A DNA stretch of 64,000 nucleotides. It comes from an uncultured Nitrososphaerota archaeon (lineage in GTDB: Archaea; Asgardarchaeota; Njordarchaeia; Njordarchaeales; Njordarchaeaceae). Positions 42,401 to 45,624 of the stretch are shown here, piece after piece (the stretch's first letter is position 1; the number at the start of each line of letters is the position of its first letter). A model generated the notes under the pieces. That model saw only the letters and a program-made list of their open reading frames with translations, was not told the DNA's origin and did not search any database. The position numbers and the translations under genes were made by a program. The stretch is taken from NCBI GenBank assembly GCA_964518475.1, contig CAZFGR010000001.1, forward strand, positions 128,001-192,000, given 5' to 3'.

Positions 42401-43252
42401 CTAATCAGCATCTAATTCGCATTCATATGAAATTCCCAGAATCGAAAGTATTCGTAAAGGCCAGAGACGATTACTATTACCCGATTTTATGATAATCCCT
42501 AACATATTTTTTATCCGCGCTAATCTGATAAGGATTATGATTTTTTCTGTGAGATCCTTGAGTTCGGCTTCGATAATCTCCTTCATACTCCTTTTTTCCC
42601 CCGCCATTGATAAATTCAAAAGATATAATTGGCTTCCATCCTCGCTTTTTGTTACATAATAAGGTTTTTTCTGGAAATTGTTTGCGTAGCTTAGAAATCT
42701 CCTCAGTATATTTTCAAAACCTCCTGGCAGGAAAGAATTTGGAAATGCTATAAGATATATATGTGGATGTTGCCACTGCTTAGGAACATTCTTTGATAAT
42801 TGAAATCCACCTAATATGAGGCCATAGTTCTCCTTTATGAGTTTATTAGATTCATGCACAAAACTTTTAATTCCGCTTCTTGTAAGGATATTTAGCACTT
42901 TACGATCTTCTACATTATGCTTATCAGTTAGAATAATTATTTTCTCCGCACCAATTACTGGTACTTCGCAGACTACTTCTGGATTTTCTCTAAGGAAAAA
43001 TTCCAGAAAGTCCCAAGGAACAAAATCCTTTACTATAGTTTCTGGAAAAAGAAAATGAGTAGACATTATTATTATGTCCTTTCTCTTGGATTTTCTCCGC
43101 TTCTTAGCCTTAATACATAATCTACATTTCCCTACATACTTCCTCAGTAAGTTATCACATGAAAAAACTAGTTTCCATTGCTTTTTCTCCGTATCCCAGC
43201 GTGCGTAAACACCCATTCTATCTCGAGGCCTCCGCAATCCTCTCGATCTCAA
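42401..43252 (-). CDS. Hypothetical protein (true start probably downstream of the track start)
   Basis: ORF between rps7 and the roadblock gene, probably co-transcribed; no recognised motif. Confidence 0.5.
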   Translation of the reverse strand: MRSRGLRRPRDRMGVYARWDTEKKQWKLVFSCDNLLRKYVGKCRLCIKAKKRRKSKRKDIIIMSTHFLFPETIVKDFVPWDFLEFFLRENPEVVCEVPVIGAEKIIILTDKHNVEDRKVLNILTRSGIKSFVHESNKLIKENYGLILGGFQLSKNVPKQWQHPHIYLIAFPNSFLPGGFENILRRFLSYANNFQKKPYYVTKSEDGSQLYLLNLSMAGEKRSMKEIIEAELKDLTEKIIILIRLARIKNMLGIIIKSGNSNRLWPLRILSILGISYECELDAD

Positions 43253-43874
43253 CTTTCTTTCTTATAGCATAGCTATCCATACTATTTCTAGCTGCAAGAA
43301 TTATTTCCTCTGCAAGACACTCCGCTAAGGAGAGAGGACTATTCCAAGCTCGTCTTCTTGCACCAGCTACTATGAATTTTAATGCTAGATCTAATCTTCT
43401 TTGCGGGGCAATGTCAACAGCATATCTCCTAACAATACCTCCTTGTCTTATCTCTACCGTTTCTTCACGAGGCGCTACATTTTCTAGTGCCCTAACGAAT
43501 ACTTGAATTGGATTTTCATTTGTTCTTTTTTCAATTATTTCAAATGCCTGCTTAACTATACCTAGCGCATGGAATTTTTTGCCACCCATCATTCCAATTT
43601 TCTTTGTACCTTTTTCTCTTCCCGGCGCTAATAATCTATTGACAAGTCGCTCCACAATAGGAACATTCGCTTTACCGAACTTTCTTTTCGCATGTCTACC
43701 AAAAGTGTGAGGAAGATACACGGGTTTGAGATTAATATAAGCCCTTAGCCCCGGATCCCGAACTGTGATCCCTTCATAGCTCCACTTACCGAATAGCTTT
43801 AGAGCAGGTTGTAGAGATAATTCTTCCTGCTTCTCACTTTGTGACTCATTATTGCTTTCGTTTTCCTGGCTCAT
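43218..43874 (-). CDS. rps7: Ribosomal protein uS7
   Basis: KLFGKWS, PHTFGRH, IVERLVN, APREE, VDIAPQRR, ERIAEASR; start set at MSQENE. Confidence 0.97.
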   Translation of the reverse strand: MSQENESNNESQSEKQEELSLQPALKLFGKWSYEGITVRDPGLRAYINLKPVYLPHTFGRHAKRKFGKANVPIVERLVNRLLAPGREKGTKKIGMMGGKKFHALGIVKQAFEIIEKRTNENPIQVFVRALENVAPREETVEIRQGGIVRRYAVDIAPQRRLDLALKFIVAGARRRAWNSPLSLAECLAEEIILAARNSMDSYAIRKKVEIERIAEASR

Positions 43875-44035
43875 CAAGACCCCCAGCTGTTTTAAGCTAT
43901 TACGTGATATACTACTAGTCATATGAAGAGTTTATTTAAAAGTTTGAGAATTATAGGAAATCAACACACATATTTAAATTTGCTAAGAATGGATTATGGA
44001 AAGTATATTACTGAGGTTCTGGATAGGGGGATTTC

Positions 44036-44509
44036 ATGGTAACTAAATCTCCACGTGGTGAATTTGCTGCAAGAGTTTTGCGAAGAAAAAGAAAAAAGCA
44101 GAGATGGGCTGATGTAGAATATAGAAGACGAATGTTGAGGCTTCGAGAAAAATACGATCCCCTAGAGGGCGCTCCTCAAGCAAGCGCCATAGTTTTGGAG
44201 AAAGTGGGTATAGAAGCTAGAAAGCCAACAGGAGCTCTTAGAAAAGCTGTAAGAGTAAAAATAAAGAAAAATGGAAAAATTGTAACAGCTTTCGTGCCTT
44301 ACGATGGAGGATTATTATTCATAGATGAGCACGACGAGGTAATCATTGAGAGGATAGGGGGCAGCCAGGGACGATCAATGGGGGACATGCCCGCGATCAA
44401 ATGATCGCGGGCACCCCAAATCCCAGGAGTTAAGTTCAGAGTCGTCAAAGTAGCTGGCATAGCCCTTAAGGAGTTAGTGACTGGTAGAAAGCGGAAAGAG
44501 AGAAGATAG
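44036..44509 (+). CDS. rps12: Ribosomal protein uS12, two exons (44036-44386 and 44420-44509), 146 aa after splicing
   Basis: Exon 1 ends ...IDEHDEV...GRSMGD; exon 2 reads [29 protein letters not shown]; the insert carries an in-frame TGA. Confidence 0.95.
44387..44419 (+). other. 33-nt BHB-type archaeal intron in rps12
   Basis: GGGG-AC^A-TGCCCGCGATC-AAAT-GATCGCGGGCA-CCCC-AA^A; canonical cuts after bulge nucleotide 2 give GAC|ATC (D-I). Confidence 0.88.
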
Positions 44510-44583
44510 TCACTTTCTATATCCACTACTCCGTTTTCAGTGTTTTTCATTAAACACTATTTATTTTTTGTAAGGAAAACGCT

Positions 44584-45624
44584 ATGGAGCCTCTTGCAGA
44601 ATACACTCGCAAAAGAATTTTTAAGATAACCCCTGAAACTGATATCCCATTAATGGGCTGTATCGCTTTTGGTTTGATTGACCGTGGCACTAATCTTATT
44701 CAGGTACGTCCAGTTACTACATGCCCTCTTTCGTGTATTTTTTGTGCAACAGATGCTGGTCCTAGATCCAGAAATAGGCAGACAGAATATATCGTCGAGC
44801 TTGATTATCTTGTTGAGGAATTTAGGAAATTGGTTATGTTTAAGGGTCCAAAAAAGATTGAAGCTCACATAGACACCGTTGGTGACCCATTGACATATCC
44901 CAGAATTGTAGAGCTGGTGCAAGAGCTATCTGAGACTCCAGGAGTTGATGTAATATCTCTTCAAACTCATGGTGTTTTGCTTACCGAGAAGTTAGTGGAT
45001 GAGCTTGATGCTGCTGGGTTATCTAGAATAAATCTCTCAATAGATTCTCTCGACCCCGATTTAGCAAAGTACCTTTCAAATACACCAAGTTATAATCTGG
45101 ACAAGGTATTAGGAATTGCTGAGTATATTGCAAACAGTAGTGGAATAGATCTTTTGATAGCTCCTGTTTGGGTTCCAGGAATTAACGATTCAGAGATCCC
45201 AAAAATTATTGAATTCGCTTTGCGTATTGGGGCTGGAAAACGTTGGCCTCCCCTAGGAATACAGAAATATATACCACATAAAAGAGGCCGTAAACCAAAA
45301 AATGTGAAAGCAATGAGTTGGTCACGTTTTTACAAGCAATTACGGATTTGGGAAAAGAAATATGGTGTAAAGCTAATTTTAAAGCCGGAAGATTTTGGTA
45401 TTCACAGGAGAAAGAGCTTGAAAGCTCCTTTTAAGATTGGTGAAGTAGTTAGAGCGACTGTTGTTGCCCCGGGATGGCTTAAGAACGAGGTAATTGGAAG
45501 AGCTAAGGGATTCTGTATAACGATAGTTAATGCAACTATTGAGGAAATACCTATAGGCACTGATGTTTTTGTTAAGATAGAGAAGACTAAACACAATATT
45601 TTGATTGGTAAGTTAGCTAGATAA
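44584..45624 (+). CDS. Radical SAM protein with C-terminal TRAM-like domain (COG2100-like)
   Basis: GLIDRGTNLIQVRP, CPLSCIFC, EAHID, C-terminal VKIEKTKHNILIG. Confidence 0.9.
   Translation: MEPLAEYTRKRIFKITPETDIPLMGCIAFGLIDRGTNLIQVRPVTTCPLSCIFCATDAGPRSRNRQTEYIVELDYLVEEFRKLVMFKGPKKIEAHIDTVGDPLTYPRIVELVQELSETPGVDVISLQTHGVLLTEKLVDELDAAGLSRINLSIDSLDPDLAKYLSNTPSYNLDKVLGIAEYIANSSGIDLLIAPVWVPGINDSEIPKIIEFALRIGAGKRWPPLGIQKYIPHKRGRKPKNVKAMSWSRFYKQLRIWEKKYGVKLILKPEDFGIHRRKSLKAPFKIGEVVRATVVAPGWLKNEVIGRAKGFCITIVNATIEEIPIGTDVFVKIEKTKHNILIGKLAR

Follow-up and report, generated by a model that had tools for sequence, protein, structure and literature searches.

A predicted 33-nt tRNA-type intron in the single uS12 (rps12) gene of an Asgard archaeon of the Njordarchaeales

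In eukaryotes, the HAC1 and XBP1 mRNAs are spliced independently of the spliceosome: IRE1 cuts the mRNA and Trl1 or RtcB ligates it. Bypass elements, known from T4 gene 60 and, under the name 'byps', from the mitochondria of Magnusiomyces, are passed over by the ribosome, which requires matching take-off and landing codons. Within the literature that we searched, cbf5 is the sole protein gene of archaea whose splicing by the tRNA endonuclease has been confirmed in experiments. The intron of its pre-mRNA was described in Crenarchaeota of the Desulfurococcales and Sulfolobales (PMC2738675, Yokobori 2009; also Watanabe 2002, Yoshinari 2006), and the 2009 paper stated that splicing had been confirmed in no archaeal protein gene besides cbf5 (PMC2738675). 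Our full-text literature searches for a BHB intron in rps12, in any ribosomal protein gene or in Asgard mRNAs found no published case, in line with an earlier note on this DNA, whose author knew of none in rps12. A 2026 preprint on Asgard tRNA introns leaves mRNAs unmentioned.

The window analysed here is a stretch of 64,000 nucleotides from a metagenome-assembled genome of the Njordarchaeales lineage (G000; 2.33 Mb in 121 contigs, 91% complete, 5.8% contamination, 38% GC), and the same DNA is present in hydrothermal-vent and sediment metagenomes. In this window, the rps12 gene, which encodes the essential ribosomal protein uS12, lies at 44036-44509 on the plus strand and is interrupted by a 33-nt insert at 44387-44419. 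The upstream open reading frame (44036-44404) reads as uS12 as far as GRSMGD, with GAC at 44384-44386, and then runs through MPAIK into the TGA at 44402-44404. The uS12 frame picks up again at 44420 and ends in TAG at 44507-44509. The insert separates Asp117 from Ile118 inside the conserved GD^IPGV motif (the caret marks a cut or junction). The uS12 reading up to GRSMGD, the TGA-containing insert and the resumption at 44420 had been proposed in the earlier note, and all of its coordinates agree with ours. The Pfam profile PF00164 (Ribosom_S12_S23) spans the insert with 111.9 bits, above the cut-off, over model positions 2-110 of 110, with one TGA inside the match. The features of the locus are as follows.

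44036-44386, plus strand: rps12 exon 1, 117 codons, ending in GRSMGD; the PF00164 match extends over both exons.
44387-44419, plus strand: predicted BHB-type intron, 33 nt; relatives have homologous introns at this site, 31, 33 or 34 nt in length.
44420-44509, plus strand: rps12 exon 2, 29 codons ending in KERR, plus TAG; dN/dS 0.01-0.13 among carriers.
44402-44404, plus strand: in-frame TGA within the predicted intron.
44380, plus strand: minimal outer helix h, G44380-U44421 (alignment A1, columns 27/28 against 70/71); both sides are coding.
44381-44384, plus strand: 5ʹ strand GGGG of the central 4-bp helix H, exonic (Gly GGG and the G of GAC), invariant in 8 of 8 sequences.
44385-44387, plus strand: 5ʹ bulge ACA, predicted cut 44386/44387; AYA in 8 of 8 sequences.
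44388-44398, plus strand: 5ʹ arm of the inner helix h' (TGCCCGCGATC), 11 pairs.
44399-44402, plus strand: hairpin loop AAAT; 4-8 nt in relatives.
44403-44413, plus strand: 3ʹ arm of the inner helix h' (GATCGCGGGCA), pairing with 44388-44398.
44414-44417, plus strand: 3ʹ strand CCCC of the central helix H, intronic, invariant in 8 of 8 sequences.
44418-44420, plus strand: 3ʹ bulge AAA, predicted cut 44419/44420; ARA in 8 of 8 sequences.

We asked whether the insert is real and whether the gene has a second copy. A Logan contig, which is a separate assembly of the source sample with a depth of 35, covers 44114-44600 and contains the insert with zero differences; the contigs of three other DNA runs (X2-X4) did not extend over the intron. 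Since this contig is identical and the same site recurs in assemblies of other species, the insert is not an assembly artefact. There is one PF00164 locus in the window's genome, counted in an assembly that is 91% complete with 5.8% contamination. No other copy of the intron was found within the genome, which argues against a mobile repeat.

The surroundings of the gene differ within the genus. In the window's genome and in G002, rps12 is preceded by rps7 (window 43218-43922, minus strand), encoded on the other strand, and followed by a radical-SAM-like gene (window 44584-45624, plus strand). In the intron-less G003, as also in the distant G257, rps7 comes directly after rps12, which is the usual operon order. 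The rps12-rps7 operon is rearranged in part of the genus.

To describe the fold of the insert, we compared the window's gene with homologous sequences from relatives in an alignment of eight distinct carriers (A1, see below). A 4-bp helix with two 3-nt bulges on opposite strands was found in all eight, and the inner helix h' stands beside the 5ʹ bulge, being a perfect 11 bp in the window's gene. The geometry given in the earlier note (GGGG/CCCC, the ACA and AAA bulges, the 11-bp stem) is the same as ours. The 86-nt region around it folds with -36.6 kcal/mol (z = -4.0), and none of 200 dinucleotide shuffles was as stable. In the minimum-energy fold of ViennaRNA the register was one G off, with bulges of 4 nt and 2 nt. 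Such a slip is possible because five G residues face four C residues; the comparative data favour the BHB register over the slipped minimum-energy fold.

The outer helix is the weak part of the motif. The strict hBHBh' form has an outer helix of at least 2 bp, and we found it reduced to a single G-U pair in the window's gene, against two pairs in most relatives: the next outer position is U-A in seven of the eight sequences and U-C in the window's gene. The earlier note had drawn a longer exon helix, CCAGGGA/TCCCAGG. It can be formed in the window sequence with an A-A mismatch, but it is unconserved in the alignment, where 68% of cells were paired. Departures from it were unpaired cells only, without covariation, and we rejected this 7-bp helix as the outer helix. 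As the 3ʹ bulge is closed weakly by a reduced outer helix, we classify the motif as a relaxed BHB in which h' is strong and h is minimal, with at most 1-2 predicted bp.

Cutting after the second bulge base on both strands would join GAC^ATC, leaving GDIPGVK intact and giving a uS12 of 146 aa, in agreement with the product predicted earlier. Because an A is repeated at both borders, an intron placed at 44388-44420 would give the identical spliced product. The same cut rule could be calibrated on the tRNA genes of this genome, as ARAGORN listed 43 of them on contigs C1-C53, 20 with introns, several of which are at non-canonical positions. In tRNA-Thr(TGT), an intronic CAAG pairs with the CTTG of the anticodon loop; with TA^A and AG^A as bulges, the 37/38 borders fall after the second bulge base on both sides. 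The rule also holds for the intron of tRNA-Lys(TTT) and for that of tRNA-Met(CAT), which is non-canonical, in agreement with the ARAGORN calls. Applied to two further protein genes, it also restored conserved motifs of EF-1alpha (FAVRD^MGQ) and uL2 (RGVAM^NACDHPFGGG).

We then searched for an rps12 insert in 12 genomes from the class and in about 390 others from the phylum. Among these genomes, an insert at the GD^IPGV site was confined to the genus of the window, where four of the seven species carried it (G000, G001, G002 and G006) and three were intron-less (G003, G004 and G005). A pattern scan of JGI metagenomes added four further distinct carriers (L125, L129, L130 and L132), and these eight make up alignment A1. 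Intron length was 33 nt in G000, G001, G002 and L125, 34 nt in G006, L129 and L130, and 31 nt in L132, so that four of the eight introns (G006, L129, L130 and L132) break the frame. The would-be insert peptides were unrelated, for example MPAIK(stop)SRAPQ and ILGA(stop)RPRVPQ. Taken together, the frame-breaking 31- and 34-nt lengths and the unrelated peptides exclude translation through the insert.

The comparison across relatives, one of the checks advised in the earlier note, showed both presence/absence polymorphism and covariation of the stem. In the h' helix, 94% of the cells of the alignment were paired and 6 of the 11 pairs were changed on both sides (compensatory changes such as G-C to A-U and C-G to U-A). 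The score for covariation was 0.213; shuffles scored 0.098, with none of 500 reaching the observed value, and slid partners scored no more than 0.089. As the central helix is invariant, the support for its pairing is indirect, through codon choice. The Gly codon that provides three G residues of this helix was GGG in all eight carriers, and in the aligned intron-less relatives it was GGA, GGT or GGC (6 of 6; GGG in none), with GGG making up 15.6% of the Gly codons in the long ORFs of the genome. This is indirect evidence that the GGGG/CCCC pairing is under selection.

Both exons were under strong purifying selection across the carriers. For exon 2, pairwise dN/dS among carriers was 0.01-0.13, with dS often above 1; between G000 and G002, for instance, 18 of 87 nt of exon 2 differed with one amino-acid change, and the intron differed at 3 of 33 nt. 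As synonymous sites are saturated, the carriers are old relative to each other, and the intron is, to judge from these sequences, old within the genus. In the rps12 tree, the intron-less G004 fell within the carrier clade (support 89/94 and 91/92), and the uS12 proteins of G004 and G006 differed by one residue. For G004 this suggests a precise loss of the intron, after which GGG relaxed to GGA; there seems to have been at least one precise loss. The tree was built on 441 nt and resolved the history of the intron only in part, not in its deeper nodes.

To find out which enzymes could act on the insert, we looked for the splicing machinery in the genome. Two EndA paralogues are encoded. The alpha paralogue (L002:1474-2121, minus strand; 215 aa) matched best the alpha subunit of A. 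pernix (3p1z_B, 6e-50) and retains the catalytic Y/H/K context (FSVYKYGPGIDHAPF ... SVRKKF). In the HMMER alignment its IPKPKIG aligned with VEKPR-G of A. pernix, and this region is taken as the Crenarchaea-specific L1/CSL loop (K44/R46) that would confer broad specificity. In earlier work, Lys44 of the Crenarchaea-specific loop was found to give EndA its broad substrate range (PMC3241643), and Asgard archaea were reported to have an (alpha-beta)2 EndA bearing the L1 loop (PMC5829648). The second paralogue (L003:1441-2052, minus strand), of about 190-203 aa, has Q where His lines up by eye, within a similar local motif, and is probably a non-catalytic structural beta subunit. RtcB is also encoded (500 bits). 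The gene content thus includes a putative cognate EndA for relaxed non-tRNA motifs together with RtcB, and the heteromeric EndA predicted in the earlier note corresponds to the two paralogues, with an alpha chain carrying the likely broad-specificity loop region.

On this basis, we consider it probable (about 0.86) that the insert is a 33-nt BHB intron of the archaeal tRNA type in the single rps12 gene, removed by EndA and RtcB. In the mechanism we propose, folding of the pre-mRNA would pair the exonic GGGG with the intronic CCCC beside the 11-bp hairpin and leave a 3-nt bulge on each strand. A heterotetrameric (alpha-beta)2 EndA would cut after the second base of each bulge, leaving 2ʹ,3ʹ-cyclic phosphate and 5ʹ-OH ends, and RtcB would ligate the exons to GGGGAC^AUCCCA (GGGGAC^AUCCCAGG), the intron being probably circularised. 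Only the spliced mRNA would encode the 146-aa uS12; the unspliced one would give a product of 122 aa without the C-terminal 29 residues. Cleavage and ligation of the rps12 mRNA are steps that we infer from sequence, and every testable prediction of an mRNA intron of the EndA/RtcB type appeared to be supported. Full-length uS12 is almost certainly obtainable only after tRNA-splicing enzymes have cut and rejoined the mRNA.

Other explanations for the interrupted frame were also considered. Some nuclease and ligase different from EndA and RtcB could excise the insert from the RNA by way of its hairpin, as might be suspected from the weak outer helix; this is improbable, since the geometry is exactly that of an EndA substrate, the tRNA introns of the same genome share the cut rule, and an EndA of presumed broad specificity is encoded together with RtcB. 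Programmed translational bypassing, in which the ribosome hops over the hairpin and the insert stays in the mRNA, would fit a short GC-rich hairpin in a genome of 38% GC with a stop soon after the take-off point, and the purifying selection on exon 2 is compatible with any mechanism that skips the insert. However, take-off would be from GAC or GAT, and in each of the eight sequences CAA or CAG precedes the codon at which reading resumes. Bypassing would also leave unexplained the invariant 4-bp helix with its exactly 3-nt bulges, the constraint on the GGG codon, and why a cut rule taken from tRNAs hits the exact borders. With take-off and landing codons unmatched in 8 of 8, we rejected bypassing, which we regard as slightly less probable than a different enzyme pair.

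Lower still is the probability that rps12 is a decaying or silent gene, either a pseudogene or a locus backed up elsewhere, with the hairpin as a neutral insertion or a mobile mini-element. The in-frame stop and an assembly 91% complete with 5.8% contamination would allow for this, but a single PF00164 locus is present in each of G000, G001 and G002, the two matches in G006 are halves of one gene, and both exons have stayed under strong purifying selection in carriers despite saturated synonymous sites. Moreover, the structure of the insert is maintained by compensatory changes, and it has no other genomic copy. Hardly any weight can be given to recoding of the stop, in which TGA would stand for Sec, Trp or some other amino acid and the insert would add an 11-residue loop to uS12. 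The inserts of G000, G001 and G002 do have a length divisible by three (33 nt) and a single TGA, but the 31- and 34-nt homologues (G006, L129, L130 and L132) shift the frame, the insert peptide is unconserved, and the site lies within the most conserved loop of uS12. The 31- and 34-nt homologous inserts led us to reject readthrough and Sec insertion.

We also examined whether similar elements interrupt other genes, for which the earlier note had proposed a genome-wide scan. A lax scan that combined BHB search with ORF merging gave 4052 ORF-joining candidates, 1238 of them 'disrupted', and nearly all due to chance. After strict filtering (stem of at least 7 bp with at least 4 GC pairs), the yield consisted of uS12, EF-1alpha, uL2, tRNA introns and a hairpin at C1:239094-239129 (minus strand). 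The junctions of other ORF-joining hits, on C63, C73, C8, C19, C17, C16 and C4, were meaningless and these were discarded. A scan for GC islands (667 hits) was uninformative and missed the rps12 intron.

In EF-1alpha, there is a 31-nt BHB element at G000:C1:93853-93883 (plus strand) with a GGGA/CCCG-type helix and a 10-bp GC stem; the predicted cut joins LGRFAVRD^MGQLVAVGVV, restoring the conserved motif exactly. In uL2, the element is 47 nt long (G000:C1:205520-205566, minus strand) and the cut would join PRTRGVAM^NACDHPFGGG, again the exact motif. The match to Pfam L2_C ends at model position 102 in G000, G002 and G005 and reaches 118 in G003, which hints at presence/absence polymorphism of the uL2 element within the genus.

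Inserts in rps12 were also noticed in a distant Asgard family, in two genomes of one genus (g12). In G257, a 30-nt insert with an in-frame TAA (L147:1757-1786) agrees with the BHB geometry: its GCGU/GCGU helix includes two G-U pairs, the bulges are AAU and AGG, and the stem has 10 bp with a single mismatch. The canonical cut would restore PGV^RYKVVKV, at a site other than that in the window. In G235, a 30-nt insert, likewise with an in-frame TAA, lies between AFLPG and DGALNF (L152:1388-1417); it contains an AT-rich hairpin of 8 bp, with an exon-exon helix of 8 bp on its flanks, and in no register could it be fitted to the strict BHB. It seems from these cases that rps12 acquired such inserts more than once. 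Most of the low-scoring rps12 matches of the phylum survey were truncations at contig ends, not introns (G123, G256, G263, G394, G070, G080 and G091).

Some hairpins outside the genes discussed above were recorded as well. The one at G000:C1:239094-239129 (minus strand) is strongly BHB-like, with a stem of 12-13 bp. Three BHB-shaped hairpins of 31-33 nt, at C10:78-108, C61:305-335 and C27:12476-12508 of the same genome, are apparent repeats near contig ends; their core TCCTAGCC...GGCTAGGA is flanked by 4-mers of the GCGG/CCGC type. They may represent a mobile-element RNA with a BHB site.

Given the EF-1alpha and uL2 elements and the rps12 sites of other Asgard genomes, annotation may greatly understate how common enzyme-spliced mRNA introns are in Asgard archaea. 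We put forward tentatively, at somewhat less than even odds, that core translation genes of Asgard archaea host a whole population of EndA-dependent micro-introns, which have arisen at various sites and disappeared again. If so, the synthesis of ribosomes and elongation factor would depend on tRNA-splicing capacity, a dependence that could serve as a built-in coupling or checkpoint, and the prokaryotes most closely related to eukaryotes would regularly contain enzyme-spliced mRNA introns. For rps12, the predicted intron in the single uS12 gene would make ribosome production depend on tRNA-splicing enzymes, and it has been maintained for a long time in evolution, its stem undergoing compensatory changes. 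There is also a practical side, as gene callers split or truncate such universal marker genes, and this affects phylogenomic marker sets and completeness estimates in lineages used to study eukaryote origins.

Of the known systems, bypass elements resemble the rps12 insert in being short GC-rich, stop-containing hairpins in essential genes of an AT-rich genome. They differ in needing matched take-off and landing codons and in staying in the mRNA, and neither signature is seen in rps12. The splicing of HAC1 and XBP1 shares with our proposal the small stem-loops, the use of protein enzymes, the 2ʹ,3ʹ-cyclic phosphate and 5ʹ-OH ends and a tRNA ligase, as well as a C-terminal part that is readable only after splicing. 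Its endonuclease, however, is IRE1, acting on twin 7-nt loops in a regulated stress switch. Archaeal tRNA introns have the same 4-bp helix and 3-nt bulges, the same cut after the second bulge base, a similar make-up of the bulges and an equal size range. In comparison to them, the rps12 intron would be spliced from an mRNA context without a tRNA body, the 5ʹ strand of its central helix is constrained by codons, and its outer helix is nearly absent.

The cbf5 intron is likewise short, of BHB type and located in an archaeal protein gene of the translation and ribosome-biogenesis apparatus; its motif is often relaxed, its endonuclease is heteromeric, and it shows one gain with losses in some lineages. 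The two differ in host gene, site and sequence and in lineage, Crenarchaeota for cbf5 and Njordarchaeales for rps12. In the genome studied here cbf5 itself is uninterrupted (TruB_N match at C11:12928-13266, in an open frame of 340 aa without a stop). The host of the intron described here is a ribosomal protein at the decoding centre, and its splicing is predicted from sequence, whereas that of cbf5 was shown by experiment. The predicted rps12 intron is of the same kind as the cbf5 intron and not its homologue; the mechanism is already known, and the host gene and the lineage are new.
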